Shown here one piece after another: positions 24,391-48,328 of a DNA stretch of 64,000 nucleotides. The notes below the pieces were generated by a model that saw only the letters and a program-made list of their open reading frames with translations, searched no databases and was not told the origin of the DNA. Both the position numbers and the translations under genes were made by a program. Each line of letters starts with the position of its first letter. Within the stretch, counting starts at the first letter, position 1. The DNA comes from Candidatus Woesebacteria bacterium (GTDB lineage: Bacteria; Patescibacteriota; Microgenomatia; UBA1400; PJMF01), in NCBI GenBank assembly GCA_050123235.1, contig JASFHL010000002.1, positions 79,326-143,325 on the forward strand. The letters are read 5' to 3'.

Positions 24391-25413
24391 ATGTTTAACT
24401 TTTTTCACCACAAAAAAAAGCAAGTGGAAATTTCCCCTTCAATAGTTGTCTTTTCTGCCTTTTTTTTACTCTTTCTATATTTTCTATATTACATTAGTTC
24501 AATCATTACGCTTTTATTTTTATCATTCATCATTATGATTGCTCTCAACGGAGCAGTAGCAAAAATTGAAAAACGCTTTAAAATTAATAGATTATTCAGT
24601 GTCATTTTTATTTATATTTTGGTGGTGCTAGTGAGCGTTACTATTTTTGCCTATTTGGTACCACCATTGGCTAAACAAGTCTACTTATTGCTACAAAGCA
24701 TTGATTTACCAGTAATAGATCATCTCAATAGCGTTGATAATTTGACTGAATTGAGTGAGCTGGCAGGAAAATATAGTAATTCTGTTAACACTATTTTTTC
24801 CTTTATCACTTCTACTTTTGCTAGTATCTTTACTTTCTTTACCTTGATAGTAATGTCTTTCTACTTAATTCTAGATAGACCAAAACTACACCTTAAACTT
24901 TATTGGTTTACCAAAGATAAAAAGAAAATTAAAATTGCCCAGGATTTTCTAGATTCAATTGAAAGTCAGCTCGGTGGTTGGGTCAGAGGACAGATCATTC
25001 TCATGACTATTATTGGCTTGGCTACCTTTCTGGGTCTGACTGTACTAAAAGTGCCATTTGCTTTGCCACTTGCTCTTTTGGCAGGGTTGTTGGAAATTTT
25101 ACCAAATCTAGGACCCACTATCGCTGCTGTGCCAGCAGTAGCTCTGGCTTTTATTAATCTTGGCCCTGCACGGGGACTAGCAACACTAATTTTCTATATT
25201 ATAGTTCAACAAGTAGAAAACAATTTTATAGTTCCAAAGATTATGAAGGAAAATGCTGATGTCAATCCTTTAGTGGCTATTACTTGTATCTTAATTGGTT
25301 TTAAAATTTATTCTGTAGTTGGGGCATTATTGGCAATTCCTGTTTATATTATTCTTAGAACTCTTTATTCCTTCTGGGCAAAATATAAAAAAAATATAGA
25401 AGCACCTTGGTGA
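24391..25413 (+). CDS. AI-2E family transporter (UPF0118/PerM-like)
   Basis: Eight predicted TM helices and the conserved LGGWVRGQ segment. Confidence 0.75.
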   Translation: MFNFFHHKKKQVEISPSIVVFSAFFLLFLYFLYYISSIITLLFLSFIIMIALNGAVAKIEKRFKINRLFSVIFIYILVVLVSVTIFAYLVPPLAKQVYLLLQSIDLPVIDHLNSVDNLTELSELAGKYSNSVNTIFSFITSTFASIFTFFTLIVMSFYLILDRPKLHLKLYWFTKDKKKIKIAQDFLDSIESQLGGWVRGQIILMTIIGLATFLGLTVLKVPFALPLALLAGLLEILPNLGPTIAAVPAVALAFINLGPARGLATLIFYIIVQQVENNFIVPKIMKENADVNPLVAITCILIGFKIYSVVGALLAIPVYIILRTLYSFWAKYKKNIEAPW

Positions 25414-25438
25414 GTAGATTTTTCGCAAAATAAAAAAT

Positions 25439-25507
25439 GAGCGGGTAACGATAAACTGCTCGAACCTAAGACCTCTTATCGAGCCTAGTTTGGAACTCCA
25501 GTTTCGT
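25439..25507. repeat. Truncated copy (C) of a conserved non-coding repeat family
   Basis: The 28-nt core GAGCGGGTAACGATAAACTGCTCGAACC is identical to the core in copy B (28536-28563). Following similarity is weaker (…CTAGTTTGGAACTCCAGTTTCG). On the minus strand the core is followed by ATTTTTTATTTTG. Confidence 0.6.
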
Positions 25508-25554
25508 AATTTGAAAGATCATCTTGGCATTTTCAGCTTTTCTCAAATATCTAG

Positions 25555-26451
25555 CTAGAAAGAAACATCATTCAAATCAGAACTAATATTTTGAGCAGAT
25601 ACTTTTAAAGCGTTATTTTGAGGAGCTAGTTTAACTACTTCGTCAATAAATTGCGTTTTTTCAGTAGAATTGACGACATAAAGCGGGTTGCCATCAACTG
25701 TGGATGATTGTGATCCGTATTTTTTTACAAGATCTACAAACTGCTGGTCTTTTAAAATATCAAGATTCATAACTCGCACTATTGTTCCAGAGGATGCATC
25801 CCTTTTTTCTCCGATTAAGTCTATCCACACACCCAACGAGCTTATTCCATATGGACCTGGTTCTCTTACATTCAACCAATAGCTTTGACCATTGATCATA
25901 ACCGTTTTATAGTTACTTAAGGATTGGAAATTATCTCCCATCCCCATATATTTTGAGTTTTGGTGGAAGAAATACACATTTCTGATGTCGCCTGAAAATT
26001 CAGGATTTTCAACTCTGATGGACATATTGGCATAATTTTCGTCGGGAACAAAACAGTTTATTGAATTTTGAACACCGTAGGCAGTTTTTATTGATTGATC
26101 TAAAGTGAACGGTAGTTTGTTTAGACTGATCTTACTATTTAGGCAAAATTGAGAAAGGGCTTCAGATAGGTTAATTTTATTTGTTGTTTCTGTAGAGGCA
26201 GATGATGGGATTATAATTTCATCATTTCTCTCACTTATTGGAGTAGGAGTTGTCTGTTCTATTGACTTTAACGGTTGAGATTTATTACCAATGTAATATC
26301 CACTCAAGCCGAAGACTACAGCAGTAACCAAAAAAGTAATCAGTAATGGGAATAATATGTTATTCTTGTTTGTTGAAAAATTTTCAGCTTGGACAACTGG
26401 CCGATTAACTATAGTATTTTCGGGTGGATTTGCTTGACTTTTATCTTCCAT
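25555..26451 (-). CDS. Hypothetical membrane-anchored protein (N-terminal TM, extracytoplasmic domain)
   Basis: A single N-terminal hydrophobic helix, then an S/T/N-rich linker. No motif recognised. Confidence 0.4.
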   Translation of the reverse strand: MEDKSQANPPENTIVNRPVVQAENFSTNKNNILFPLLITFLVTAVVFGLSGYYIGNKSQPLKSIEQTTPTPISERNDEIIIPSSASTETTNKINLSEALSQFCLNSKISLNKLPFTLDQSIKTAYGVQNSINCFVPDENYANMSIRVENPEFSGDIRNVYFFHQNSKYMGMGDNFQSLSNYKTVMINGQSYWLNVREPGPYGISSLGVWIDLIGEKRDASSGTIVRVMNLDILKDQQFVDLVKKYGSQSSTVDGNPLYVVNSTEKTQFIDEVVKLAPQNNALKVSAQNISSDLNDVSF

Positions 26452-26496
26452 ATTTTAATTATGGCTTAACTAAAGATAAATAACAAGAACATTTGC

Positions 26497-26722
26497 GGTT
26501 CGATTCCCATCACCGGTATTGCAACTTTCCAGACTAAACGAATTTTTGTAAAAGATGAGGCTCAAACTCGAGGAAATGCGAACTACTTGGGGAAAATTGA
26601 AGCCACAACAAAACTGCTCCCGTATGGAGCGGGTATGAGCGGGTAACGGTACTTTGCTCGAACCTATTTGGCCTGGACGACTATATCAAACCCGATCTAG
26701 TTTTGCAGTTACAAGCTCTTAA
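26497..26722. repeat. Copy A of the roughly 220-nt conserved non-coding repeat
   Basis: Collinear with copy B over about 220 nt (start GGTTCGATTCCCATCACCGGTATT … end CCCGATCTAGTTTTGCAGTT), with a 10-nt internal tandem duplication (GAGCGGGTAT-GAGCGGGTAA). It lies immediately 3' of the minus-strand gene 26737..27288. Confidence 0.7.
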
Positions 26723-26736
26723 GGGTCACTTAAATA

Positions 26737-27288
26737 TTAAGAGTTTTTCTCAAATAATTTAAACATTTGTGATTCTTTATCGTATGAACGAGCAGTTTCA
26801 AAAGCCTCCTCTAGAGATTTTTTGTTTTGAGCCAACTCATATGCGATATGAGTACCAAATAAATACGCTGAATTCCCGAAAGGCGCTCCAGAGGGTGCAA
26901 TATATTTTTTCACACCTGCATCTAGAAATGAGTTTGCTAGCTCTTTGTTTCCGGTCTCACACCCCAAGCTAACAATATTTTTATCTTTCAGATTTGCATA
27001 TTCCTTCACATCTTCTGCAGATAATGGTTTTTCTCCTGGGCATGTATATATGCCTTCTTTTTCATCACCATGGCATGCAATAAAAATTAAGTCTTCAGTT
27101 TTAATATTACCTTTGAGTATTTCTAGCAACTGTTTTCTGGATCCAATAAAGTGAATGTTTACATTGAACCAAAACCTTTCAAAAGCAAGTCTTAAGGCTT
27201 GAGCTTCAAGATCTGAATTTTCTAAAACAATTAGCGAAACTGGCAATTGTGATACTAACGGTGCTTCATGGTATTTATGTTCAGACAT
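26737..27288 (-). CDS. Small caspase-like protein, clan-CD peptidase-like His/Cys dyad (paralog 1)
   Basis: Beta-strand then HG (DLIFIACHGDEKEG), and about 35 aa later a second strand then Cys (NIVSLGCETGN). This is the pattern of caspase/CHAT p20 domains. It is a paralog of 28663..29298. Confidence 0.4.
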   Translation of the reverse strand: MSEHKYHEAPLVSQLPVSLIVLENSDLEAQALRLAFERFWFNVNIHFIGSRKQLLEILKGNIKTEDLIFIACHGDEKEGIYTCPGEKPLSAEDVKEYANLKDKNIVSLGCETGNKELANSFLDAGVKKYIAPSGAPFGNSAYLFGTHIAYELAQNKKSLEEAFETARSYDKESQMFKLFEKNS

Positions 27289-27477
27289 ATCAAGTTAATT
27301 ATAGAAGAATTGGCTACGCTTTGGTATAGTCAGCTTACCGAATGATCTCTATGGTGAAGGTGCCTTACTTTTAGGGAACGATTGTTGGTGCTGGTGCACC
27401 AGTGATCCATCTTAGCTACAGGGATCGCTAGTCACTAATCAAGATGGAGAAATTTATTTTGCTCAAAATAACATTTT

Positions 27478-28359
27478 ATGTCACAAGGAAAGATTTTTGA
27501 ACAAATTGTCAGTTTGATCGAACACAGTTTAAAAAGTGACGAGAATGTCACAGTAAAGCACGATGTCAAACTAGTTGATTCATTAGGAATAGAAAGACAA
27601 ATTGATGTTTATATAACAGCTTTTATAAATGAGCATGAAATCACTGTCGCCATTGAGTGTAAGGATCACAACAGTAAAGTAAAAATTACTGAAATAGATG
27701 CATTTGATAGTAAAACTCGGAAACTTGCGGTGGATAAGCGAATATTTGTTTCTAAAAATGGTTATCAGTCAGGAGCAATCAAAACTGCAAAAAAAACAGG
27801 AATAGAATTGTGCACCCTTTCAAATCTTTCAAAAGAAGTACTAAAATCTTGGTTGCAAATACCAGGACTTCAAATGATAAATCAAATATATGATTTTAAA
27901 CACTCAAGATTTAATTTAGCTAAAGAAACGACAGTCAAAAAATTACCACCAAATTATGATATTGAGTCAAATCTATACTTGGCTGACAAGAAAAAACAAA
28001 TATCTACATCAGAGGTTAGACAGAACCTTATTAATCAGCTCTCAAAGCAACATCCTGACTTTTTTGAACCCAATAAGACCAAAAAAGTAGTTTTCAATTT
28101 CCCCAAGGAACCATATTACTTAAAAATTAATAATTTATTTGAACGAATAGATAATATTGAATCAATTATTTTTTTTAGATCGGAAATAACAAATCACCCG
28201 ATTTCTTATATACAACAATATTCACAGATTAATGGAAAAAATATTGCGAAGGCAGCGTCAATCGAGTTTCCTGCGTTATCTCAAGAATTTATCTTGAGCT
28301 TTGTTAGGTCAGAAAGTGACAACCTTACAAGGGTAGTTATTGCACCCAAAAAGAAATAG
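27478..28359 (+). CDS. Protein with an N-terminal Mrr-type restriction endonuclease (PD-(D/E)xK) domain and a C-terminal region of unknown function
   Basis: LVDSLGIERQIDVYI…ITVAIECKDHNSKVKITEIDAF…IFVSKNGYQSGAIKTAKKTGIELCTL fits the Mrr_cat pattern (D…ExK, followed by the conserved A…A…gI.L segment). The C-terminal roughly 170 aa have no recognisable motif. Confidence 0.55.
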   Translation: MSQGKIFEQIVSLIEHSLKSDENVTVKHDVKLVDSLGIERQIDVYITAFINEHEITVAIECKDHNSKVKITEIDAFDSKTRKLAVDKRIFVSKNGYQSGAIKTAKKTGIELCTLSNLSKEVLKSWLQIPGLQMINQIYDFKHSRFNLAKETTVKKLPPNYDIESNLYLADKKKQISTSEVRQNLINQLSKQHPDFFEPNKTKKVVFNFPKEPYYLKINNLFERIDNIESIIFFRSEITNHPISYIQQYSQINGKNIAKAASIEFPALSQEFILSFVRSESDNLTRVVIAPKKK

Positions 28360-28404
28360 ATTTATGGGATACTTTGTTTTATTATTGAACTGGCTCCGAC
28401 GGAG

Positions 28405-28622
28405 GAGTTCGATTCTCGTCACCGGTATTATACCTTTCCAGGCTAACGTAATTTTTGTGAATTTTGAGGCTCGAACTCGGGGAAAGATGGATTACTTTGG
28501 GAAATTTTAGGCCACGACAAAACTACTCCCGTATGGAGCGGGTAACGATAAACTGCTCGAACCCATTTGGCCTGGATGACTATATCAAACCCGATCTGGT
28601 CTTGCAGTTGAATCTTCTTAAA
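28405..28622. repeat. Copy B of the roughly 220-nt conserved non-coding repeat
   Basis: Collinear with copy A. It contains the core GAGCGGGTAACGATAAACTGCTCGAACC (28536-28563) and internal complementary segments (GAGTTCGA / TCGAACTC). It lies immediately 3' of the minus-strand gene 28663..29298. Confidence 0.7.
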
Positions 28623-28662
28623 GAGCGAATGGGTATTAGATCCCTTGTTAATACTTAACCTT

Positions 28663-29298
28663 CTAATTATTAAGTCTTTTGTCTGTTGGTTCTATAAGTA
28701 CTCTTTCGGCTTGATTTAGGACACCAGAAATTCCCTGTACATAATATATTGGACAACCAATCTCGTCGACTATCCACTGTGGAATATTATAAGTACCCAC
28801 CCCTTCTGAGTTAGCACTACAAGCATCAAACGCTATTAATGTATATTTATTTTTGCCTGTTAAATCCTTGATTGGACCTCTCAAAAAATCTTCAACATCA
28901 ACAATTTTTTCACCAAATCCTTTAGTAGAAATAATCCATCGACCCTGTTTTTCTGCACCATGTCCATGAATAAGAAGTATGTTTGGAGATTCTGCAGATA
29001 ATATATCAATCAACCTGTTTTGTACAGAATCATAACTATCTCTTTTAATGCCAAAAATTCTTGTCAAAGAAATTAGAGGTTTAAATCTCGCATCTTTGAA
29101 CTCATGTTTTTCACCAAAAACTGTAACTTCTTCTACTGTATGTTGCCAATCAAGTATGACGCTATCGACACGAGCATCTCTTTCAAACTCAGGAGTAAAT
29201 TGAAAACCTGACTCTGTTAACACGAAAGGCCCTTTGTTAAATACTATTCGTGCCTTATCACCCTGCTGAAGAACATAATCAGTATAATTTTCAGGCAT
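28663..29298 (-). CDS. Small caspase-like protein, clan-CD peptidase-like His/Cys dyad (paralog 2)
   Basis: NILLIHGHGAEKQG (HG motif) and KYTLIAFDACSANSEG (Cys motif), with the same spacing and pattern as 26737..27288, plus an extra N-terminal extension of about 80 aa. Confidence 0.4.
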   Translation of the reverse strand: MPENYTDYVLQQGDKARIVFNKGPFVLTESGFQFTPEFERDARVDSVILDWQHTVEEVTVFGEKHEFKDARFKPLISLTRIFGIKRDSYDSVQNRLIDILSAESPNILLIHGHGAEKQGRWIISTKGFGEKIVDVEDFLRGPIKDLTGKNKYTLIAFDACSANSEGVGTYNIPQWIVDEIGCPIYYVQGISGVLNQAERVLIEPTDKRLNN

Positions 29299-29349
29299 AT
29301 TTCATGATATTACTTAATGTAATTTTCTGTTTATTTCTGCCACTTTTTG

Positions 29350-29422
29350 AGCGAGAGACGGGATTCGAACCCGCGACCTTCTCCTTGGCAAGGAGACATT
29401 CTAGCCACTGAACTACTCTCGC
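29350..29422 (-). tRNA. tRNA-Gly (anticodon GCC)
   Basis: Reverse complement folds: acceptor GCGAGAG, anticodon stem CTCCT/AGGAG with loop TT-GCC-AA, T-arm GCGGGTTCGAATCCCGT. Confidence 0.8.
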
Positions 29423-29499
29423 TTTTCTTAATCAAAACTTAGCTAAAATTTCTAGCACCAGTCTTTCAATTTTTAATCTCCAACTTTTAACTCATTCTG

Positions 29500-29572
29500 T
29501 GCCAAGCTGAGGAATCGAACCTCAATCTCATGTTTTTCAGACACGCGCCGTGACCAACTTGGCTAGCTTGGC
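29500..29572 (-). tRNA. tRNA-Phe (anticodon GAA)
   Basis: Reverse complement: acceptor GCCAAGC, anticodon loop CT-GAA-AA, T-arm TGAGGTTCGATTCCTCA. Confidence 0.8.
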
Positions 29573-29639
29573 TAATTTTATCTTATCTTAAAAACAACCT
29601 CCCTATCCTAGCCTTATTCTAAAAATTTTTCAAGCCTAG

Positions 29640-29713
29640 TGGGCAATGTAGGATTCGAACCTACGACCTCTTCGATGTAAGCGAAGCACTCTAACCAGCT
29701 GAGCTAATTGCCC
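29640..29713 (-). tRNA. tRNA-Val (anticodon TAC)
   Basis: Reverse complement: GGGCAATTAGCTCAGCTGGTTAGAGTG…, anticodon loop CT-TAC-AT, T-arm GTAGGTTCGAATCCTAC. Confidence 0.8.
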
Positions 29714-30022
29714 TTTATTAACAACGATATTATAACCTCAATCATTGAATAAGTCTTGAGGTAATTAAATTTATTGACCTCTCATTTAAAAACATATATA
29801 CTACATATTAAGATATAAAAGTATTGCTTTATAAAAAAACCTAAAATTAATAAAGCAATCAAAAATAATGAGGCATCATCTTAATTTGCTCCATAAAAAA
29901 AAAATTCATCAGTTCAGCACTGGCAGATATTTTTTTCCTCTCAATCTTTCCTTTATAAAGCAAATTATCAATCACTCTCTCCCTACAGTTTGCTGGCGGG
30001 ATGAGCTAATTAAAGGAAATAT

Positions 30023-31351
30023 ATGATCACAGTCACTCCAGAAAAACCGCTATCAGCTAGCAACGTGGAGGGTGATCCTGCTACCGAAAGACAACTTTCA
30101 GCTCCTCCCCAACTTCGACCTAGAGAAATTGCTTATCAGGAACCCGGTGAGCCTTTGTCAGGAGAAAGATTGGAAGAATTAAGAGAAATTTTAGCTCTAG
30201 ATCATCAGCCTACTTTAGAAGCCTTAGCTTCTCATCTTTTTCAGAGTGACTTGGATCGAGCTCAAGAGTATTTGGCAGAATTAGCAATTGTAATGAATTT
30301 CCCAACAACGAAACTTTTTGTTCGTGATGCTAATACTGTTTTCCAAGATAAAGAAACTCTTGATTTAAAATTGAGCTTACTTGGCATAAATCCTCACACT
30401 TTTGGGGATCTTATGAGGATCAGAAATAACGATCCACAAGCAAATATAAGTAGAGCCACTTTGCTGAAAGAAGTTAATGACAGCAGCTTTACCGTAGCAA
30501 AAAGACTAGCTGAAGTTTGGACTGAAGTAAACTCAAGAGGCTACAAAGGTTACGTTGATTTATTAAATCAAATGGGTTGCACTCAAGAAAGAATAGCTGA
30601 TGCTGAAATTTTATTGGCTAATCTAGTAAACAGATTTTTACCAGGATTAACTGATGTACTTGATATCCATGATCCTCAATATAATCATAATCCAAATTTA
30701 GCATTGCCAGAATTACGACTGGCTGCAGCAAGTTCTAAAGAACTAGAAGAACTTTTTGGTCTAGATACTATCCCTTCTGCAGAATCAGATCTATTAGCTC
30801 CAGGTACGGCTACAGCTATGTTTTTTGCTAGAATTAATGAGCAAGAAAAATTAGAAAAAAAAGTGACCATTCTTCATGGCAAAGGTGATCCAAGAACAAA
30901 ACATGAAGTAGGACACGTATTAACTGATTATGCTTTAACTGATGCTGGTTTGCCTTTCTCATTAATGACTGATATGGAATTAACTGAAGCTGCCAGTAGA
31001 TTCAGCGAAAGAATGGATATCAGAGAAACTATTTTTAATCTTGCTACTTTAGTGGCAAGTTATAGATTAGCTAAAGACATAGATACATTGATGAGAATAC
31101 CACAACTAGATTTAGATAAAAAGATTTTTGTTTTGCAAGACGATATAACAGAAGCAGCGGACCAAGAATTAGATTGTGGCATTAAAGCGGCACCAGGAGC
31201 TGCTCATCTTTGGATGGGCCCTTTTGCAGTACCATATTGGATGGGTACTGCCAGCGCTGTTTCTATGAGGCTAGCTTTAAGTGAAGAAGAAAATCCTAAA
31301 ACTCAGATAGAAGCGATTGCCATGGTTTTGCAACAATATGGAGTTCTCTAG
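30023..31351 (+). CDS. Hypothetical protein with G+C and codon usage atypical for the window (possibly acquired)
   Basis: A 442-aa ORF rich in L/E/A/D. G+C is visibly higher than in flanking genes (frequent CTG, GCC, CGA, GAG codons). No motif recognised. Confidence 0.5.
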   Translation: MITVTPEKPLSASNVEGDPATERQLSAPPQLRPREIAYQEPGEPLSGERLEELREILALDHQPTLEALASHLFQSDLDRAQEYLAELAIVMNFPTTKLFVRDANTVFQDKETLDLKLSLLGINPHTFGDLMRIRNNDPQANISRATLLKEVNDSSFTVAKRLAEVWTEVNSRGYKGYVDLLNQMGCTQERIADAEILLANLVNRFLPGLTDVLDIHDPQYNHNPNLALPELRLAAASSKELEELFGLDTIPSAESDLLAPGTATAMFFARINEQEKLEKKVTILHGKGDPRTKHEVGHVLTDYALTDAGLPFSLMTDMELTEAASRFSERMDIRETIFNLATLVASYRLAKDIDTLMRIPQLDLDKKIFVLQDDITEAADQELDCGIKAAPGAAHLWMGPFAVPYWMGTASAVSMRLALSEEENPKTQIEAIAMVLQQYGVL

Positions 31352-39364: not shown

Positions 39365-41191
39365 ATGCAAATCAGAAATATTGCTATTATTGCTCATGTT
39401 GACCACGGTAAAACCACCCTGATCGATGGTATGCTCAAGCAAACTGATACTTTCAGAATAAATCAGGCTGAAATGAGCCAGCATGCTATTTTAGACCAAA
39501 ATGATCTAGAAAAAGAAAAAGGCATCACTATTTTGGCAAAAAACACCGCTGTTTTTTATAAAGACTATAAAATCAATATCATTGATACTCCAGGCCATGC
39601 TGATTTTAGTGGAGAAGTAGAACGAGTCATTAACATGGCTGATGGAGCTTTACTAATAGTTGATGCTGCTGAAGGTCCTTTACCTCAAACCAAATTTGTT
39701 TTACAAAAAGCTATTGAACAAAATCTTAAAATAATAGTAATCATTAATAAAATTGATAGAAAAGATGCTCAGCCAGAACAAGCTCTTAAAAAAACAGAAG
39801 AATTGTTTTTAAACTTAGCAGACAACGATCAACAACTAATTTTTCCAGTCCTCTATGCTGCTGGTAGAGCTGGTAAGATTTGGCATAAACTACCAACTAA
39901 TATTGAAGAAGCAGCGGACCTAAGTCCTCTTTTTGAAGAAATTATCAAAACAATTCCCGAATCTCAGGCTGACGCGAATAAACCTTTTAAAATGTTAGTC
40001 TCCAACCTTGACTTTGATGATTATAAAGGCACATATGCAATTGGCAAAGTTTCACAAGGAATAATAAAAACAGGTCAAAACATTGTTCTCATGGATGAGA
40101 ATAAAATATTATCTCAACAAAAAATTCAGCATATTTTTACTAGTAGAGGATTATCTAGAGAAGAAATTGAAACTTGCCAAAGTGGAGACATCATTGCCAT
40201 TACCGGCATCAAAGATATTCGGATTGGCCAAACTATTGTGGATCCGATTGATCCTACTGGCTACCCTCGTATCCAAATTGGTGAAGCCACCATTAAAATC
40301 CAAATTTCTGCCAATAGCTCTCCTTTAGCTGGTAGAGAAGGGGACTTTGTCACTGCCAGACAATTAAAAGATCGATTAAAAAAAGAACAAAAGACTAACA
40401 TTGGCTTAAAAATTGAATCTCAGCAAAATGGCAAAGGTTTTATGGTAGCTGGGAGAGGAGAGCTACATCTAGCTATTTTAGTTGAAAACATGCGTAGAGA
40501 AGGTTATGAGATGGAAGTGGCTAAACCACAGGTGATTTTAAAAGAGATTAATGGCCAAGTTTCTGAACCTATTGAAGAATTGACCATCGAAATTGATCAA
40601 AATTTCGTTGGCATTATCACAGAAGAACTAGGTAAAAGAAAAGGTGAACTAATCGAAAGTTTCACCAATGATAAAGCAATTTCTAGAATGGTCTACAGAA
40701 TCGCCAGTAAGAATTTACTAGGATTTAGAAGTAAAATTCTAACTAAAACCAGAGGAAATGGCTTATTTAGCAGTCACTTTTTAGAATATCAGGCTATCGG
40801 TCCTAAAGCTAAAAAATTAAGAAATGGTGCTCTGGTGGCTAGTCATTCAGGTAACGCTACTAGCTATGCCTTAAGAACAGCCCAAAATCGTGGACTTACT
40901 TTCATTCCAGCTGGTAGCGAAGTCTACCAAGGGATGATTATTGGTTTAAATAAACAAAGCGAAGATATAGAAATCAACGTCACTAAGGCAAAAAAATTAA
41001 CAAATTTCCGTTCTAATGCAGATATTAGCGTCCCGCTAGAACCTCCTATGATCCTTAGCTTAGAGCAGTCTTTAGATTTTATTGAAGATGATGAACTTTT
41101 GGAAGTCACTCCTAAAAATTTAAGATTAAGAAAAAAATTCTTAGATAAGGGAGATCGAGTGAAGCAAGCTAAAAAGATGGCTTTGTCCTGA
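39365..41191 (+). CDS. typA: Translational GTPase TypA/BipA
   Basis: [25 protein letters not shown] and NKIDR GTPase motifs, and a length of about 600 aa characteristic of BipA. Confidence 0.85.
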
Positions 41192-41332
41192 TTGATCAAA
41201 AACTATTGGCTTAAGAGCCTAAATAGGATAATATTCTTAATATTGCATTATACAAGTCCTAAAAAAAGGGCTTTTTTTTGTTTTCCCGATAAAAAAAATT
41301 ATCTCTGTTTGATGTTTAATGGAGGATGATTT

Positions 41333-41407
41333 GTGAGTCAGCTGGGACTCGAACCCAGGACACCCTGCTTAAGAGGCAGGTGCTCTAACCAACTGAGCTA
41401 CTGACCC
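41333..41407 (-). tRNA. tRNA-Lys (anticodon CTT)
   Basis: Reverse complement: GGGTCAGTAGCTCAGTTGGTTAGAGC…, anticodon stem CCTGC/GCAGG with loop CT-CTT-AA, T-arm CTGGGTTCGAGTCCCAG. Confidence 0.75.
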
Positions 41408-41485
41408 TAACTATTTATTATTGTTTTATTTTCAAATAATCCGGACGTCCCAATTTTAAAAACTTAATTTCCTATCCAATATATG

Positions 41486-41578
41486 TGCCCAGGAGAGGAC
41501 TTGAACCTCCACGAAATAAATTCACAGCCTCCTCAAGACTGCGCGTCTACCAGTTCCGCCACCTGGGCTAATAGATTT
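41486..41578 (-). tRNA. tRNA-Leu (anticodon GAG), long variable arm
   Basis: Reverse complement: GCCCAGGTGGCGGAACTGGTAGACGC…, anticodon loop TT-GAG-GA, long variable arm, T-arm GGAGGTTCAAGTCCTCT. Confidence 0.75.
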
Positions 41579-41638
41579 ATATATTATAAAACCAATCATC
41601 CTGAAGCTCAAATCAAGAAATCACAAAAATCAAGTCTG

Positions 41639-41723
41639 TGCCGAAGAGAGGATTTGAACCTCCACCCCGCTAAGCAGGACACGCTTCTGAGGCGTGCGCG
41701 TCTACCAATTCCGCCACTTCGGC
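41639..41723 (-). tRNA. tRNA-Leu (anticodon CAG), long variable arm
   Basis: Reverse complement: GCCGAAGTGGCGGAATTGGTAGACGC…, anticodon stem CACGC/GCGTG with loop CT-CAG-AA, T-arm GGAGGTTCAAATCCTCT. Track ORFs 41483..41878 and 41608..41814 over the tRNAs are spurious. Confidence 0.8.
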
Positions 41724-41740
41724 TGAAATTTAAGAAGTTG

Positions 41741-42460
41741 TTATTTAGTAACCAATGCTTTATAACGTGTAATTGGTCCAAATTTACGATAAAAAGCTTC
41801 CAAGATAAGTTCAACAGTTCTATTGATGGTAAAGTAATTAGTATTAATAGTCAAATCATAAGAATTAGCTGCATCTAATTTTTTTCTAAAATATTGCTTT
41901 ACAAAGTCCTTTCTTTCTTTTTCTTCCTTAGCAATCACTTTTTTTGCTTGTTGTCTAGTAAAGCCTTCAAACTCCATGGCTCTATTGACTCTCACCGCAT
42001 AAGGAGCCACTACGTTTACATGAAGGCCTCTGGCAAAAGGACAGATGAAATTAGCCCCTCTGCCCAGAATTACCACATGACCCTTATGAGCATAGGCCAA
42101 AATAATTCTCGTTAATTCTTTCAAGTAAGTAATATTATCAACATAATCAGGATTTAGAATAGAGTGAACAATATCATTAATTCTAGTCCTACTTTTCTCG
42201 TCAATTTCTCTAATAATAGCTTTACTTTTTTTAATTGAATGAGAAATATCATCAATAATTTGCTCATCAACAAAGATAAAATCTAATTTTTGAGCTAACT
42301 TTTTGGCAATAGGAGCGCCACCACTACCCGGCTCACGAGCTATGGTAATAAAGGGCTTAGTAAAGATCTCCCCATTTTCCTGATAACTCTCCAGTAATTT
42401 ATCTTTCAGCTTCATCGCAGTGATCATTTTATTGACCAAGGGATAATAGTGAATCTTCAT
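41741..42460 (-). CDS. Cytidylate kinase-like family protein (P-loop NTPase)
   Basis: ITIAREPGSGGAPIAKKLAQKLDFIFVDEQII resembles the 'cytidylate kinase-like' family N-terminus (ITIsREyGSGGreIAkkLA). Confidence 0.5.
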   Translation of the reverse strand: MKIHYYPLVNKMITAMKLKDKLLESYQENGEIFTKPFITIAREPGSGGAPIAKKLAQKLDFIFVDEQIIDDISHSIKKSKAIIREIDEKSRTRINDIVHSILNPDYVDNITYLKELTRIILAYAHKGHVVILGRGANFICPFARGLHVNVVAPYAVRVNRAMEFEGFTRQQAKKVIAKEEKERKDFVKQYFRKKLDAANSYDLTINTNYFTINRTVELILEAFYRKFGPITRYKALVTK

Positions 42461-42501
42461 ACTTTGTATTATAACGTTTTTTTTGGAAAAAGCATGATTA
42501 T

Positions 42502-42885
42502 TTAATTAAAAAATTGACTGTTTAAAGGAATCTTATCTAGAGCGTCTAAAAGGCCATTTCTTCTAAAAAAACTTTGTTTAGAAACATAAGTGACTCCCTC
42601 TTGTTGAGCTAGCCCACGGCCAGATCTTTGATCATAAGAAAAAATAAAAACTGCTAAATTTAAAGCTAAAGCAGCTTGCATATAGACCTTCCAATCTTCT
42701 CCAGTTAAAGTAGTGATAATCAATAAGCTTGCTTTAGCTTCTTCTAAGATTCTTTCCGCCTCTTCCACTTGCCCAACTTCTTCAACTTTTACAGCTTTAT
42801 AACCTTTAAAACGTAAAGCTGTAATGAGCACTTTTTCTAAATTACAATCTCCCTGTAAAATTGCAGCTCTAGGTCTTTCTTCCAT
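42502..42885 (-). CDS. Hypothetical protein
   Basis: ORF only. Faint resemblance to a receiver-like alpha/beta fold, with no conserved motif. Confidence 0.3.
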   Translation of the reverse strand: MEERPRAAILQGDCNLEKVLITALRFKGYKAVKVEEVGQVEEAERILEEAKASLLIITTLTGEDWKVYMQAALALNLAVFIFSYDQRSGRGLAQQEGVTYVSKQSFFRRNGLLDALDKIPLNSQFFN

Positions 42886-43029
42886 AAAATTAATTTCCTT
42901 TTTACATATTTATTATGTCGATATTGTCTCAACAATTATAAAATAAATTTAAAAAAAACCAAAGAATCTTTATTCCTAAACAGAATTAGCCATCACGAAA
43001 TGTTATAATTTAATGGTTCTTTAAACTCT

Positions 43030-43103
43030 GCCTCAGTAGCTCAGTGGATTAGAGCGCCGGTCTTCGGAACCGGGCGTCGGGGGTTCGAATCCCTCCTGAG
43101 GCA
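43030..43103 (+). tRNA. tRNA-Arg (anticodon TCG)
   Basis: GCCTCAGTAGCTCAGTGGATTAGAGC…, anticodon stem CCGGT/ACCGG with loop CT-TCG-GA, T-arm GGGGGTTCGAATCCCTC. Confidence 0.8.
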
Positions 43104-43131
43104 CCTTACTAATTAGCTCCTAAAATAAATT

Positions 43132-44028
43132 ATGAAAATCATTTCTGGACTATCCAACCTCAAATTAGCTCAAAAAATTGCCAACAAGCTTAATTTAAGT
43201 ATAGTAGATTGTGAAATTTCTAATTTTAAAAATGAAGAAAAAAGAATCTGGATCAAAGAAAATTTGAGAAGTGAAAATATTACCTTAGTTCAATCCTTTT
43301 CCTCTCCAGTTGATAGCCATATCATTGAAACTCTACTCATAACAGATGCGCTGGAAAGAATGGGTGCTAGGCACGTTAATCTTTTAGTTCCTTGGATGGG
43401 CTATTCCTTGCAAGACAAAGTCTTTAGAGAAGGAGAACCAATTGCTGCCAAAATGGTTGCCAACATTCTTTCAAATACTTATATTAGAAGAGTTTTCTTA
43501 TTAGATCTTCATAATAATAGTATTCCTGGATTTTTTTCAATCCCTACTCATCACTTATCAGCCATGGATATTTTTGCAGATTATATAAAAGAAAATTTTG
43601 ATTTAAAAAAAGCTATTATTGCCAGTCCTGACTTTGGCGGCTTAAAAAGAGCTAGATCTTTTGCTAACAAACTTGGATTAGATTTGATTAATATTGATAA
43701 ACACCGTGATTTAAAAACTGGAAAAGTAACAGCTGTTGGCTTACATGGAAAAACAAAAAACAAGACTGTTTTCCTTTTTGATGATGTGATTATGTCCGGT
43801 GGAACAGTAGTTGAGTCTGCTAAAATACTTAAAAAAGAAGGAGCAAAGCAAGTTCACTTTTTAGCAACACATGCTGTTTTATGTGATAATGCTATCCAAA
43901 AGATTCAAAAATCAAAAATTGATAGTGTGGTAGTCACTAATTCCATTTACCACAAAAAAATTAATGATAGAATAAAGACTCTTGATGTTTCACCTATTTT
44001 TGCTGAAGCAATTAAGCAATGGCTATAA
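43132..44028 (+). CDS. prs: Ribose-phosphate pyrophosphokinase
   Basis: DLHNNSIPGFF (compare DLHA.QIQGFF) and PRPP-binding loop FLFDDVIMSGGTV. Confidence 0.8.
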   Translation: MKIISGLSNLKLAQKIANKLNLSIVDCEISNFKNEEKRIWIKENLRSENITLVQSFSSPVDSHIIETLLITDALERMGARHVNLLVPWMGYSLQDKVFREGEPIAAKMVANILSNTYIRRVFLLDLHNNSIPGFFSIPTHHLSAMDIFADYIKENFDLKKAIIASPDFGGLKRARSFANKLGLDLINIDKHRDLKTGKVTAVGLHGKTKNKTVFLFDDVIMSGGTVVESAKILKKEGAKQVHFLATHAVLCDNAIQKIQKSKIDSVVVTNSIYHKKINDRIKTLDVSPIFAEAIKQWL

Positions 44029-44040
44029 AATCTTGATATT

Positions 44041-45276
44041 ATGAAAATGTCTCAATTGGCTTTTAGGCCTCTCAAAAATCCACCGGCTAATGCTGATACT
44101 CTTAACCATGCACTCTTAGTGCAAGCTGGTTTTGTGCGTCAACTCATGGCTGGAGTATACAGTTACACTCCTTTAGGCCTGAAAGTTCTCAATAAAATCA
44201 GGAATGTGATTAGAGAGGAAATGAATGCGATAGGTGGCCAAGAAATCCTCATGCCTTCTTTGCATCCAAGTAAAAATTGGAAACAAACCGGAGCTTGGGA
44301 TGGAGTTGATGTGCTTTTTAAAATCAAGAGCAGAACTGATAGAGATTATGCTCTTGGTCAAAGTCATGAAGAAGTAGTCACTCCTTTAGCCAAAGATATT
44401 ATTAAAAGCTACCGCGATCTTCCTTTGGCTTTATATCAAATCCATTGGAAATTTAGAGATGAACTTAGAGCTAAATCAGGTATTTTAAGAGGCAGAGAGT
44501 TTGAGATGAAAGATATGTATAGTTTTCACGAAACTCAATCGGATTTTGATAAATTTTACCAAAAAGTCAAGGATGCTTATCTTAAAGCTTATAAAAAAAT
44601 TGATCTAGTTGCCAAAGTCACTGAAGCTTCTGGAGGCAGTTTTTCCAACAAGATTTCTTATGAGTTTATGGTCTTAACTGATGCCGGCGAAGATGATATT
44701 TATTATTGTTCTAACTGTGAATTTTGTGTAAATAGTGAGATTGCCAAGAAAAAAGCAGGCGATATTTGTCCTAACTGTAAAAAAGCAAAACTAAAAGCAG
44801 CTCGCGCTTCTGAAGTAGGTAATGTCTTTGACTTGGGTCAAAAATATAGCAAAGATTTTGATTTAAGCTACACTAATCAAAAAGGTGAAAAAAAGCAACC
44901 TATCATGGGTTGCTATGGTTGGGGTACTACCAGAACCATGGGTGTGGTAGTAGAAAAATCAAATGATAAACGCGGGATTATCTGGCCTAAAGCCATTGCT
45001 CCTTTCCAGCTACATCTAATTTCGATTAAAGGGGCAGAACAAGAAGCAAAAAAACTTTATCAGCAATTGCTAGCAGAAAAAATAGAAATCATTTGGGATG
45101 ACCGTGATGAAAATCCTGGTAGTAAGTTTGCTGACGCAGATTTAATTGGTATACCAGTAAGATTAGTAGTGTCATTGAAAAATAAAAATAAGGTTGAATG
45201 GAAAGAGAGAGATAAAGAAAAAACTAAATTAATCAAGTCTAAAGAACTAATTAAAAGATTAAAAGCATCTTCATGA
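44041..45276 (+). CDS. proS: Prolyl-tRNA synthetase (short form without an insertion/editing domain)
   Basis: Class II motifs: motif 1 region LLVQAGFVRQLMAGVYSYTPLGLKVLNKIRNVIREEM, and motif 2 HWKFRDELRAKSGILRGREFEMKDMYSF. Confidence 0.75.
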   Translation: MKMSQLAFRPLKNPPANADTLNHALLVQAGFVRQLMAGVYSYTPLGLKVLNKIRNVIREEMNAIGGQEILMPSLHPSKNWKQTGAWDGVDVLFKIKSRTDRDYALGQSHEEVVTPLAKDIIKSYRDLPLALYQIHWKFRDELRAKSGILRGREFEMKDMYSFHETQSDFDKFYQKVKDAYLKAYKKIDLVAKVTEASGGSFSNKISYEFMVLTDAGEDDIYYCSNCEFCVNSEIAKKKAGDICPNCKKAKLKAARASEVGNVFDLGQKYSKDFDLSYTNQKGEKKQPIMGCYGWGTTRTMGVVVEKSNDKRGIIWPKAIAPFQLHLISIKGAEQEAKKLYQQLLAEKIEIIWDDRDENPGSKFADADLIGIPVRLVVSLKNKNKVEWKERDKEKTKLIKSKELIKRLKASS

Positions 45277-45620
45277 ATCGCGACTATAAAAATCTTGTTT
45301 TTACTAAACATGCGCTAGATCGTTTAAAAAGTCGTTCTCTAACTCAAGAGCATATTTATCAAACTATTAATTTTCCTGATCTTAGTAAGAAATCTAGACA
45401 AGCAGGTACTAAAAAATTTATAAAAAAAATAAAGGGTCGTAAAGTTCATAGTATAGCAAGTTTTTTAGATGATCAAAAAAAATGGCTGGTGATTTCTGTT
45501 TGGGTGAGAGGAGAGGAAGATAAATTGCCATTTATCTGGCAATTTATCACTTTGCCTTTTAAATTATTTATTAAAATTTTGAAATTAATTATCAAGCAGT
45601 TTTTAAAAAATAAAAAATGA
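45273..45620 (+). CDS. Hypothetical small protein
   Basis: 115 aa with a basic C-terminus. No confident motif. Confidence 0.3.
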   Translation: MNRDYKNLVFTKHALDRLKSRSLTQEHIYQTINFPDLSKKSRQAGTKKFIKKIKGRKVHSIASFLDDQKKWLVISVWVRGEEDKLPFIWQFITLPFKLFIKILKLIIKQFLKNKK

Positions 45621-45830
45621 AATTAGTTCAATTTTTTACTGCGAAAATTGCAAAAAATATCTAGTCTTATAAAAAATATTTTCTTCAATCTTATAAAAAA
45701 CTATATACCTTCTAATCAATCTTTTTTCCTTATGGGTTTTTTCTGTAAAAAAGTATATAGTACTAAATACTACCCGGTGAGGGGTCCACTACAAATTACC
45801 AGATTTCATATCTAAGAAATCCAGGGATTT

Positions 45831-46739
45831 GTGGTGGTTTTATTATTAAGATATACTATTAAAGTGCAAAAGAAAAAATTGATTGTCACTCACCATGCTC
45901 CTGATCCTGATGCTATTGCTGCTGTTTGGCTTTTAAAAAACTTTGATAGTCAGCATTATGCTGATGCTAGAGTTGCTTTTGTTAATCCTGGAGAAAAAAT
46001 TGATCTAGAAGAAGCAGAAAAATATCAAGCACAACTTCATGAGATAACTTTTGTTGATACTGGTCATGGAGAATTTGATCATCATCAACCATCCAGAGCT
46101 AAAAAAAAAATTTGTGCTTCTTCATTAGTATTTGACTATATTTGCAAATTGCATCCTGAAAGAAAAGAAGATAAAGCCCTTCAAGAATTAGTTGCATTCA
46201 TTAATGATCTAGATCATTTTGGAGAAATATATTGGCCAGAACCTACTCATACTCGTTATGTTTTCATGCTCCATGAGTTAATCAGAGGACATGAATATAC
46301 AGATCCTCATAATGATGATTCACAAATGCATTTTGGACTTAAATGCCTAGACTATGCTTATGCAGCTTTAAAAAAATCAATCAGAGCTGCTGAAGCTATT
46401 GAACAAAAAGGCATAGAATTTGACATCCAAGGTGGTAAGGCTTTGGCAATTGAAACTAGAAATGACGATGCTATTAAAAGAGCTCAAAAAATGGGTTTCT
46501 TATTAGTGATTAGTAAAGATAGTAAACAAGGTAATATCAGAATTAAAGCCAGACCAGATGCTAAATTTAATCTTGATAAACTTTATCAAGCAATCAAAAA
46601 AATTGATCATAAAGGAACTTGGTTTTACCATGGTGGCGGCAAAATGTTACTTAACGGTTCTAGGAAAAAACGTAATCATCTGGCTAGCCCATTAACCTTA
46701 GAAGAAACTATGAAATTAGTAAAGGAGCATTATGCATAA
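45831..46739 (+). CDS. Hypothetical protein, possibly a DHH-superfamily phosphoesterase-like N-terminus
   Basis: LIVTHHAPDPDAIAAVWLL resembles DHH motifs I/II (H-x-x-P-D-x-D-a-i-g-s). The start codon is uncertain; GTG at 45831 lies within a hairpin. Confidence 0.3.
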   Translation: MVVLLLRYTIKVQKKKLIVTHHAPDPDAIAAVWLLKNFDSQHYADARVAFVNPGEKIDLEEAEKYQAQLHEITFVDTGHGEFDHHQPSRAKKKICASSLVFDYICKLHPERKEDKALQELVAFINDLDHFGEIYWPEPTHTRYVFMLHELIRGHEYTDPHNDDSQMHFGLKCLDYAYAALKKSIRAAEAIEQKGIEFDIQGGKALAIETRNDDAIKRAQKMGFLLVISKDSKQGNIRIKARPDAKFNLDKLYQAIKKIDHKGTWFYHGGGKMLLNGSRKKRNHLASPLTLEETMKLVKEHYA

Positions 46740-47202
46740 AGATGATTGCGTTTTTTGTCAAATTGCTAAAGGAGAAATGCCTTGTCACAAAGTATGGGAA
46801 GATGAAAAACATCTTGCTTTTTTATCAATCTTTCCTAATACCGAAGGTTTCACCGTCATCGCCCCCAAAGAGCATTATTCTAGCTATGCTTTCGAACAGG
46901 AAAATCAAGTATTATCAGAACTAATAATTGCTACCAAGAAAACGGCTCAAGTCTTGGATAAGTTTTTCAAAGATGTAAATCGTTGTGGGATGTTTTTTGA
47001 AGGCTATGGGGTTGATCATCTTCATAGTAAACTTTTTCCAATGCATGGCACTGTAGCAATAGATGAGTGGCAAAATATAGAAAGTAAAGGGTTTGACCAA
47101 TATTTTGATCAATATCCTGGTTATCTTTGTTCAAATAATTCCAAAAGGGCGGATGATAAAAAATTGGCTAAATTAGCTAAAGCCATTAGAGATTCTTATT
47201 AA
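46732..47202 (+). CDS. HIT (histidine triad) family protein
   Basis: N-terminal CVFCQI-like segment and histidine-triad-like VDHLHSKLFP, in a HIT-sized protein. Confidence 0.55.
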   Translation: MHKDDCVFCQIAKGEMPCHKVWEDEKHLAFLSIFPNTEGFTVIAPKEHYSSYAFEQENQVLSELIIATKKTAQVLDKFFKDVNRCGMFFEGYGVDHLHSKLFPMHGTVAIDEWQNIESKGFDQYFDQYPGYLCSNNSKRADDKKLAKLAKAIRDSY

Positions 47203-47304
47203 AATCAAAGATACTCTCCCAGAAAGTTTAACTTTGAGATATAATACAGCACTATCTTTATTAGAAAACAAATTAATCAATAAATCAAAATATTTGGATA
47301 GGAG

Positions 47305-47565
47305 GTGTTCAACTTGCCAATTATTGTCAAAGCTAAAAAGAATGATTCTACTAGTGACTTGATTAAAAAATTCAAAAAAATGGTTGCAGCTAGTGACGTA
47401 GTACAAATCTGCAAAGATAGAAGATATCATCAAAAGCCTTCCAAAACTAAATCTGTGAATATAGCACAATATAAACGTTTAAGAAAAAGAATGCGTTCAC
47501 TCAAAAAAATGAAAAATACTTCAGCCTCAGTTCTAGAGAGAATGGCAGAAAGATTGAACGCTTAA
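47305..47565 (+). CDS. rpsU: 30S ribosomal protein S21
   Basis: MPIIVKAKKND…, a basic C-terminus and a size typical of S21. The real start is probably TTG at 47314, 9 nt downstream of a GGAGG RBS. Confidence 0.7.
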   Translation: MFNLPIIVKAKKNDSTSDLIKKFKKMVAASDVVQICKDRRYHQKPSKTKSVNIAQYKRLRKRMRSLKKMKNTSASVLERMAERLNA

Positions 47566-47604
47566 AAATAACTGAAACTAGATTTAGTCTCAAGCTTAGA
47601 TTAA

Positions 47605-48267
47605 TTATTTTCTAGATTTGATCCTTGCCTTAATCATGAATTCCCATTGATCACCATCACTGGTATCAAAACTAGTGGAATTGGTTAATTGATATAAATT
47701 TAATAAGTGGTTACTCAAAGATTCTTCGATTTCTTTACGTTGTTCATTTAATTCTGAGACTTCTACTCTTAAATTCGTTACCTGAGGATCAGCTTGCAAT
47801 TGACTTTTCCTAGCTTTGACCTCATGAGTATAACTATCAGCTTGCTGTTTTGCTTCCGTCAATTTGCTATCATTATCAAAAACATTTCTCAAACTTTCTC
47901 TTTTTTCTTTAAGTTCTGCTTTAATTTTCATCAATTCTTCTGCATTACGTTCAATTAAATTTTGTAAAGAAGTAAGGGTAGTAGCTAATTGATCAGATGC
48001 TGCTAATTCATCATCCTGATTATTGGCATCACTGACTTTATCATCATTAGTCGCAGAATTCTGAGAAACTTGCGACAAAGCTTCCAGAGCTAAATCATCT
48101 CCAGACTTGAGTTTTGGCTCAGTTTTTCCTTCTCCCAATTGCGCTGTTTTACTTTGGGCAAGTTTTTTTTGTTTATTAATTGCTAACTGTTTTTGTTGAT
48201 CATCTGTCATAATATTTTTCCTTTCTGTTACCTTAAAACTTATAACAAGTTCTAGAAAACACTGCAA
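47605..48267 (-). CDS. Hypothetical acidic coiled-coil protein
   Basis: Q/E/L-rich heptad-like sequence. No motif. Confidence 0.35.
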   Translation of the reverse strand: MQCFLELVISFKVTERKNIMTDDQQKQLAINKQKKLAQSKTAQLGEGKTEPKLKSGDDLALEALSQVSQNSATNDDKVSDANNQDDELAASDQLATTLTSLQNLIERNAEELMKIKAELKEKRESLRNVFDNDSKLTEAKQQADSYTHEVKARKSQLQADPQVTNLRVEVSELNEQRKEIEESLSNHLLNLYQLTNSTSFDTSDGDQWEFMIKARIKSRK

Positions 48268-48328
48268 GCCTCATAATTCTTATTTTCTAACTCTTTTGCT
48301 TTTAAAAAACTAATCGATTATACTAATG

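Follow-up and report, generated by a model that had tools for sequence, protein, structure and literature searches.

A two-domain Mrr_cat nuclease with an orphan C-terminal half in a repeat-punctuated array of a Candidatus Woesebacteria genome

The DNA analysed here, hereafter the window, is a stretch of 64,000 nucleotides (nt) from Candidatus Woesebacteria (assembly GCA_050123235.1, contig JASFHL010000002.1, positions 79,326 to 143,325 of the forward strand). It carries a gene for a protein in which a nuclease domain of the Mrr_cat type is followed by an undescribed second domain (Table 1). The open reading frame (ORF) starts with ATG and encodes 293 amino acids (aa), and its opposite strand holds no competing ORF of at least 60 aa. 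A 100% identical protein (P0001) has been deposited from a Candidatus Woesebacteria metagenome-assembled genome under the name 'restriction endonuclease', other assemblies from that population agree in the gene order around it, and seven homologs with 42-65% identity align over their full length from the same methionine. The nuclease gene is an accessory gene in one slot of a variable, repeat-punctuated array that lies beside a tRNA-Gly/Phe/Val cluster. The order of features is E1, a 298-aa gene (-), E0-E1, a 183-aa gene (-), E2, the Mrr_cat gene (+), E0-E1, a 211-aa gene (-) and tRNA-Gly (-), where E0 denotes the proximal half (~110 nt) and E1 the distal half (~100-130 nt) of a repeat and E2 denotes another conserved element.

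Table 1. Features of the nuclease locus, in window coordinates
Feature	Position	Strand	Basis or remarks
Complete gene, two-domain protein (Mrr_cat nuclease + orphan C-terminal domain)	27478..28359	+	ORF list, identical database entry, full-length homologs
N-terminal PD-(D/E)xK / Mrr_cat catalytic domain, aa 1-119	27478..27834	+	Pfam, model topology, Foldseek
E8 codon, acidic residue of first helix	27499..27501	+	invariant, 22/22 in family alignment
D43 codon, 'D' of PD, within Q-I-D-V-Y	27604..27606	+	invariant, 22/22
E60-C61-K62 codons, E-x-K motif	27655..27663	+	family alignment
C-terminal orphan domain, aa 120-293	27835..28356	+	beta-rich, one long helix, basic, no relative outside small family
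Divergent spacer, 189 nt, between 183-aa gene and nuclease gene	27289..27477		contains E2
E2, conserved element of ~90 nt	27334-27427		perfect 12-nt palindrome CTGGTGCACCAG; matches in L018, L019, L020, L021, L022
Repeat copy A (E0_A 26497-26605, E1_A 26606-26736)	26497..26736		directly 3' of 183-aa gene
Repeat copy B (E0_B 28407-28514, E1_B 28515-28662)	28407..28662		directly 3' of 211-aa gene
Partial repeat copy C, E1 only	25420..25554		3' of 298-aa membrane-anchored gene
183-aa flanking gene	26737..27288	-	invariant H72-G73 ... G108-C109 pair, sub-threshold CHAT similarity
211-aa flanking gene	28663..29298	-	invariant G-H112-G ... D157-x-C159 pattern, no family assignment
tRNA-Gly(GCC), tRNA-Phe(GAA), tRNA-Val(TAC) cluster bounding the variable segment	29349..29713	-	ARAGORN, Rfam

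Sequence comparison and structural modelling both place the protein in the Mrr_cat / PD-(D/E)xK superfamily and indicate that its N-terminal ~119 residues form an Mrr_cat-type domain with the full predicted metal-binding and catalytic set, which in the model is made up of E8 from helix 1, D43 from the beginning of strand 2 and E60-x-K62 from strand 3. An earlier interpretation made from the letters and open frames of the window, referred to here as the sequence-only reading, had recognised an Mrr-type nuclease with a D…(I/V)D…E-x-K core at this position, and had pointed to a search with the Pfam profile PF04471 as the way to check it. That profile (Mrr_cat) matches residues 39-118 at E=2.4e-7 with 31.3 bits against a gathering score of 21, and the homologs P0026, P0027 and P0032 likewise exceed the gathering score; Mrr_cat_2, NERD and NA-iREase1 match the 293-aa protein below threshold only. 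The motif residues, in script-checked numbering, are E8, H-D29-V, I42-D43 and E60-C61-K62, followed by NGYQSGAIKTAKKTG. The full-length AlphaFold model, built from an 8-sequence family alignment (mean predicted local distance difference test (pLDDT) score 69), has a core of helix 4-18, strands 25-33, 39-50 and 53-62, helix 70-82 and strand 87-92, which is the canonical alpha-beta-beta-beta-alpha-beta order of PD-(D/E)xK enzymes, so that the acid of the first helix, the Asp of the second strand, the (E/Q)xK of the third and the core topology that define the catalytic signature are all present. A loss of conservation at the catalytic D, E and K positions would have refuted the sequence-only reading, and no such loss is seen. 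In an alignment of 22 proteins covering all subgroups of the family, E8, D43 and G95 are invariant, position 60 is Glu, or Gln in one clade, and position 62 is Lys or Arg, an alternation that is the family's sole irregularity. A QxK variant occurs also in E. coli Mrr.

Searched against the PDB with Foldseek, the full-length model finds its best neighbour in AF1548 (1Y88; E=2.2e-4, probability 1.00), an archaeal Mrr_cat-like protein that it resembles through the nuclease core. The two differ in their C-terminal parts, share 17% identity and superpose with low TM-scores (0.25/0.38). Since the function of AF1548 is unknown, the match adds no mechanism. Further neighbours are the endonuclease domains of R2 retrotransposons, Can2, Bax1, AspBHI, MspJI, Cap4, DrdV, BamHI and FokI. 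All matches of the full-length model are confined to the nuclease core.

The C-terminal ~174 residues are predicted to be a target-recognition or trigger-sensing module, and they bear out the statement of the sequence-only reading that the remaining ~170 aa match nothing familiar. Residues 120-293 have no match in Pfam, NCBIfam, PADLOC or PHROGs, and a PDB sequence search with the protein returned nothing at E<=1. A model of this part by itself (pLDDT 73, predicted TM-score 0.59) has mainly beta structure, including long hairpins, and a single helix; Foldseek found no credible neighbour for it in the PDB (best E=0.22, TM 0.23) and nothing credible in BFVD (TM ~0.2, root-mean-square deviation >20 A). 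A recognisable modified-DNA reader, such as a winged helix, an SRA/PUA-like or a YTH domain, did not emerge from the Pfam, PDB and fold searches, the last made with a model of moderate quality, which a very divergent reader may have escaped. SRA, winged-helix, SAVED and CARF identities were considered for the domain and are unsupported, the Foldseek matches of the full model being confined to the nuclease core and those of the C-terminal model not credible. The C-terminal half has an isoelectric point of 9.5 against 7.8 for the N-terminal half.

The second domain is also very rare. A profile of it, searched against 1.84 billion cluster representatives, matched only 10 proteins at E<=0.001, most of which carry it at the C-terminus of a ~290-aa protein; four of the distant matches have an Mrr_cat N-terminus. 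One protein, P0030 (371 aa), joins the orphan domain to a head of the PolyA_pol/CCA nucleotidyltransferase type and was considered as evidence that the domain is portable. We dropped this candidate: P0030 keeps the last beta-alpha unit of Mrr_cat, and its junction falls at an 'RRD' motif common to both parents (CCA/PcnB-type enzymes carry RRD), so that, by its sequence, a chimeric assembly or a disrupted gene is more probable than a true domain fusion. Proteins of ~280 aa from Vibrio, Photobacterium, Shewanella and others share the nuclease core and the overall length (hhalign 99.8% over 243 columns), whereas the C-terminal halves alone of the Woesebacteria and Vibrio-type groups show no significant profile similarity (probability <=4%). 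As judged by these comparisons, the nuclease core is conserved and the second half has diverged beyond recognition between clades.

Relatives of the nuclease are scarce, and their surroundings vary. The close family has ~8 proteins in 5.8 billion clusters, and a profile search found 1 locus in 185,579 species-representative genomes. Neighbourhoods differ at every one of the roughly ten loci surveyed, with no recurring neighbour. P0002, which is 65% identical and the closest homolog with usable context, is encoded between two integrases in the company of HicAB, PIN, Phd and an OLD-family ATPase-nuclease. P0008 follows an alpha/beta-hydrolase and precedes unknown genes, and P0007 lies at a contig end, adjoining Era, a two-component system and Lon. 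The Vibrio-type relatives sit among hypothetical genes with an integrase or transposase nearby; a Mesorhizobium plasmid relative (97% coverage) adjoins a TIR protein, a cyclase/ThiF-E1/MPN cluster and a RES toxin; the relatives on Cupriavidus and E. coli plasmids stand alone, and others again are on plasmids or adjoin integrases or transposases. The relatives stand singly, in variable regions, on plasmids or within islands of defence or mobile genes. The sequence-only reading had counted it against itself if homologs were mainly isolated genes in housekeeping contexts, and their isolation is largely what we found, in contexts of varied kind.

Positions 40716-48544 of the Mesorhizobium plasmid, NZ_CP083955.1 (L025), form a dense defence island in which the distant, full-length nuclease relative is found with a TIR-domain protein, an adenylate/guanylate cyclase with ThiF/E1 and MPN/JAB proteins (CBASS/Pycsar-like), a RES NAD+ phosphorylase and a TPR protein.

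The nuclease has no methyltransferase partner. A Pfam scan of all genes within +-8 kb found no methyltransferase domain among the products, which include a DUF1189 protein, a DUF4153 protein, a MiaB-type radical-SAM enzyme, MiaA, an AI-2E-family transporter, argininosuccinate synthase, a GNAT protein, an amidohydrolase and a radical-SAM protein. A crude motif scan of the 53 open frames of at least 150 aa in the window found no (D/N/S)PP(Y/F/W) or PCQ+ENV signature, and no methyltransferase is annotated beside the nuclease relatives examined, those on plasmids included. A solitary gene without a cognate methyltransferase is the arrangement of Type IV enzymes, and the adjacent methyltransferase expected of a Type II restriction-modification (R-M) system is missing within +-8 kb. 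Scans of the nuclease and its four neighbours with PADLOC, NCBIfam and PHROGs gave nothing meaningful.

Comparison with known systems clarifies which of these the protein could resemble. With E. coli Mrr and the Mrr_cat family it shares an E...D...(E/Q)xK signature, the (S/T)GxxxxA helix that follows it, and a solitary gene with no methyltransferase partner. Mrr consists of an N-terminal winged-helix DNA reader and a C-terminal nuclease. In the Woesebacteria protein this domain order is reversed and the second domain shows no relationship to any known reader domain; the PADLOC model mREase_IV does not match the nuclease, and matches only 50 residues of a Vibrio-type relative. With the order reversed and no recognisable reader domain, membership in the Mrr-type Type IV group is not established. 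DpnI (Type IIM) and the 5-hydroxymethylcytosine-dependent enzymes PvuRts1I and AbaSI are proteins of ~250-320 aa in which an N-terminal PD-(D/E)xK domain precedes a C-terminal reader of modified DNA, and they have no methyltransferase. Their plan, size and gene solitude, and the placement of the nuclease before the second domain, make them the best functional analogy for the way the protein may work, one that comes without a detected relationship: the winged-helix and SRA-like folds of these enzymes are absent from the Foldseek matches of both the full and the C-terminal-only models, and no PDB sequence is matched.

Related designs are known among defence proteins. For Vibrio chromosomal integrons, experiments have confirmed single-gene anti-phage cassettes that combine Mrr_cat with varied second domains (bioRxiv 10.1101/2024.07.02.601686), and STAND/Avs-type proteins employ Mrr_cat as effector (PMC9122126). 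Avs/NLR-like STAND proteins, Lamassu and integron cassettes such as 'Epona' resemble the protein in having an N-terminal Mrr_cat domain with a variable second domain and in their accessory or cassette-like contexts, some as single genes. In contrast to these effectors, the nuclease here is found without a STAND NTPase, an SMC-like partner, a transmembrane or holin segment, or a PADLOC match. Cap4 (CBASS) and Can2/Card1 (type III CRISPR) have nuclease domains that are structural neighbours and follow a logic in which a sensor gates the nuclease. However, the Woesebacteria protein contains neither a SAVED nor a CARF domain, its surroundings hold neither cyclase nor CRISPR genes, and its uncharacterised domain comes after the nuclease, whereas their sensor precedes it. 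The protein is neither a component of a Type II R-M system nor a Cap4/Can2-type ligand-gated nuclease. What is already known in this design is the standard restriction-type nuclease core; what is new is the very rare undescribed second domain, in a lineage of the Candidate Phyla Radiation (CPR) whose defence repertoire is poorly known.

With some confidence, and partly by analogy, we favor a model in which the protein is a stand-alone, restriction-like defence nuclease of two domains that lacks a methyltransferase, was acquired independently and carries a new specificity or sensor domain. The absence of a methyltransferase partner and of any conserved neighbour suggests that the nuclease most likely works alone. 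Because no methyltransferase would protect the host, the target should be missing from host DNA or the nuclease should remain inactive until a cue of infection appears. We envision that the C-terminal domain provides target recognition for the N-terminal nuclease or gates it. In one scenario the enzyme would cut DNA that bears a mark or structure absent from the host chromosome, following the Type IV/IIM logic of Mrr, DpnI and PvuRts1I. In another, the nuclease would stay inactive until the C-terminal domain senses an invader. A defence-type role, as had been proposed from the sequence, is plausible.

Several observations weigh against this model. Composition is one: the GC content of the host genome is ~34%, and in a compositional-island test the nuclease gene had host values of GC and of GC at third codon positions, so that it bears no compositional sign of recent transfer. 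PADLOC-DB v2 gave no match for the nuclease at E<=1, and none at E<=0.1 for P0002, P0008 or the Mesorhizobium relative. Position 62 is Arg in five family members (P0002, P0003, P0005, P0029 and P0032), a substitution by which catalysis may be weakened or changed in some members. The context of the homolog at L004 is housekeeping-like on at least one side and that at L002 is mixed. The C-terminal model is moderately confident and derives from 8 sequences, so that the lack of a fold match may partly reflect its quality, and nucleic-acid binding by this domain is putative. The defence role itself is argued from context and analogy.

Beyond the nuclease gene, the 3.9 kb from the transporter gene to the tRNA-Gly/Phe/Val cluster are punctuated by conserved non-coding elements. 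Repeat copies A and B are direct repeats of ~225 nt, 78-85% identical, that bracket a 1.9-kb unit with the 183-aa and Mrr_cat genes. A 28-nt core common to the repeats, GGTTCGAGCAGTTTATCGTTACCCGCTC, has three copies in the window (0 expected by chance), is identical across Woesebacteria and Roizmanbacteria contigs and is present in six Joint Genome Institute (JGI) metagenome contigs. The three repeat copies of the window each lie 3' of a minus-strand gene of their own (298, 183 and 211 aa), and the repeat spacers have a GC fraction of 0.41-0.42 compared with ~0.25 for ordinary spacers. The nuclease gene itself starts 38 nt downstream of the mapped E2 block (27320-27440), and its stop codon lies 48 nt upstream of E0_B. 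The conserved elements separate the nuclease gene from the genes on either side, and the three clearly occupy separate slots of a variable array without forming an operon.

The same elements occur elsewhere with other cargo, and the repeat family is represented in L014/L023 and L018-L022. On one of the six JGI contigs, from Roizmanbacteria, E1 comes after the 183-aa ortholog and shares a stretch of 35 identical nt with copy C of the window. Relatives of E2 are found at L018:1048-1140, L019:5350-5423, L020:3956-4002, L021:2508-2545 and L022:7835-7880. E1 is followed directly and contiguously by E2 in L019, L021 and L022, and in the window and L018 a gene is lodged between the two, which suggests that the E1/E2 junction is a point of cargo insertion. 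L021:122-2626 corresponds to window 26497-29422: both have the tRNA-Gly ortholog with an adjacent E0-E1 copy, L021 lacks the 211-aa gene, and its two repeat copies enclose a different cargo of three genes, encoding proteins of 252 aa and 173 aa and a PIN-domain protein (Pfam E=9e-12). Such an arrangement is compatible with a cassette-like hot-spot next to tRNA-Gly in Microgenomates. The E1-E2 slot of L018 holds a 260-aa ORF with a hint of HNH_5, and an HNH assignment for this gene was set aside because the hint is sub-threshold (E=0.042).

On the strand of the adjoining gene, E1 ends in a terminator-like hairpin with a T-run (GCTCC-ATACG-GGAGC at 26616-26630 and 28525-28539 of the minus strand), from which it appears that each minus-strand cargo gene brings or uses its own terminator. 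L014:6640-6690 has a perfect 17-bp stem (z=-4.1) and the stems of window copies A and B are shorter; single-sequence folds of E1 were no more stable than shuffled sequences, with the exception of this L014 terminator hairpin. The plus strand of E1 contains an open frame, 'ERVTINCSN..FGLDDYIK..' (ERVTINCSNxFGLDDYIKPDLVLQL...), at 28536-28658, 26637-26736 and 25439-25554 of the window and at L022:7570-7833. Its long form in L019 and L022 has ~87 aa and looks ribbon-helix-helix-like by eye. The putative micro-protein has no Pfam match, an in-frame ATG occurs in one window copy only (copy B), and the excess of variation at third codon positions is weak (variable columns 9/10/15); an RNA or DNA element is the alternative to a micro-ORF. 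An Rfam scan of 25300-30100 found the three tRNAs only and no RNA family for the repeats. At its start (26493-26520 and 28403-28430, plus strand) E0 has a motif like a tRNA T-loop, GGTTCGATTC..TCACCGGTA. An origin of E0 as a tRNA-derived att site or tRNA fragment was considered and dropped, the match being to the generic T-loop of the window tRNAs (12-15 nt) with no acceptor stem. In the segment with repeats, neither the ORF list nor Pfam revealed an integrase, and E0, E1 and E2 lack a long internal inverted repeat like the imperfect palindromes of the attC sites that separate integron cassettes, having only a short terminator-like hairpin. The resemblance of the array to an integron is one of layout only.

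These data raise the possibility of a more far-reaching account, which as a whole we think rather doubtful. In it the C-terminal 174 residues would be an undescribed fold that reads a phage-specific DNA feature or an infection cue, the protein would be a new single-gene anti-phage nuclease of CPR bacteria, and the E0/E1/E2 array beside tRNA-Gly in Microgenomates would be a cassette hot-spot that swaps cargo (Mrr_cat, PIN, possibly HNH, CHAT-like) between lineages.

The repeats also invite an alternative in which the nuclease is selfish, of the homing or addiction type, and serves the mobility or maintenance of the cassette by cutting empty sites or cells that have lost it. The gene is tightly bracketed by E2 and E0/E1, long repeats flank the 1.9-kb unit, and the perfect palindrome in E2 upstream could be a binding site. 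Moreover, the closest homolog lies between integrases and toxin-antitoxin genes, and equivalent slots elsewhere hold a PIN nuclease of the toxin type and the sub-threshold HNH gene. However, no copy of E0, E1 or E2 accompanies the homologs at L001, L002 and L004, and nuclease and repeats are therefore not firmly coupled. The repeats are found next to cargo other than nucleases and also without any cargo, and there is no conserved antitoxin or immunity partner. We regard a selfish nuclease as improbable.

It is less probable still that catalysis is weakened and the protein serves in DNA binding or as a scaffold, for instance as a regulator or as an inactive sensor derived from a restriction endonuclease. 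The Arg at position 62 of five family members would fit such a role, as would a weak, sub-threshold match to a 'NACHT-associated inactive REase' (E=0.14). Yet inactive PD-(D/E)xK derivatives usually lose acidic residues, and here E8 and D43 are invariant throughout the family, E8, D43, E60 and K62 are all intact in the window protein, and the change from Lys to Arg is conservative. A housekeeping nuclease of DNA repair or recombination (resolvase/NucS/RecB-like) is very unlikely. PD-(D/E)xK domains are also used in repair, the composition of the gene is host-like and one homolog has housekeeping neighbours on its sequenced side, but the extremely patchy distribution described above, the lack of conserved synteny, the presence of relatives on plasmids and in defence or mobile islands, and a best Pfam match to a restriction-enzyme family and not to a repair family all argue against it.

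The sequence-only reading had gone further and described the nuclease as lying between two caspase-like, paralogous protease genes, with which it would form a module of nuclease effector plus protease. The position is as described; the caspase likeness is a sub-threshold hint in one of the two flanks. Both flank families, of 183 aa and 211 aa, are very small and confined to Microgenomates, and each has an invariant His-Gly ... Cys pair with caspase-like spacing, compatible by sequence with a caspase-like dyad. The CHAT profile (PF12770) matches the window 183-aa protein at E=0.09, below its gathering score of 24 bits, and matches 3 of 9 members of that family, at best with E=8e-4 and in all cases below the gathering score. 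The 211-aa family has no signal of CHAT or of caspases (Peptidase_C14) and no Pfam match. In a two-sequence BLASTP search the proteins share only 47 residues around the 'HG' motif (E=0.002), and a profile-profile comparison with hhalign gave a probability of 1.3%, so the two are not detectable paralogs. As a side observation, the recurrent sub-threshold CHAT similarity of the 183-aa family extends to a 221-aa relative in Streptomyces.

Adjacency of the three genes, the His-Gly ... Cys pairs, the recurrent CHAT matches and the existence of CHAT-nuclease pairings in other defence systems speak for a three-gene module with the nuclease as effector or sensor. The neighbourhood survey largely refutes it. 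At six loci the flank orthologs are single genes, beside TrpRS/RecR, RNA polymerase beta-prime and ribosomal proteins, a hydrolase and tRNA-binding protein, or TspO/cupin, and at none of these is there a nuclease or a second 'protease'; none of the about ten nuclease-relative loci has a CHAT- or caspase-like neighbour, so that the three families co-occur at no other locus surveyed. At the locus itself the nuclease gene runs counter to the two flanking genes, downstream of each of which lies a separate conserved element with a terminator-like hairpin at its end, and the repeats that separate the three genes separate unrelated cargo elsewhere. We consider a nuclease-protease module the least likely of the explanations and infer that the 183-aa and 211-aa genes are cargo in their own right and no partners of the nuclease.

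The nuclease is a genuine but modest finding, and its partnership with proteases is not borne out. If our favored model is correct, the immune repertoire of Patescibacteria, sparse as far as known, would gain a further small nuclease that is restriction-like and lacks a methyltransferase; its recognition or sensor domain is without a described relative and would be of moderate interest for the mining of DNA readers and for the study of defence in ultra-small symbionts. The more useful practical outcome is the negative one, that adjacency to two genes with His/Cys motifs is no indication of a nuclease-protease system. Repeats that delimit slots with differing cargo across Microgenomates hint at the exchange of accessory genes in reduced genomes.

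Beyond the tRNA cluster, the window contains a 442-aa ORF (30023-31351, plus strand) without family assignment that has the highest local GC fraction (0.378). It has an 'HEVGH' motif reminiscent of zinc metalloproteases, and a 574-aa ORF near the E-elements of L020 has 'HEFGH'.

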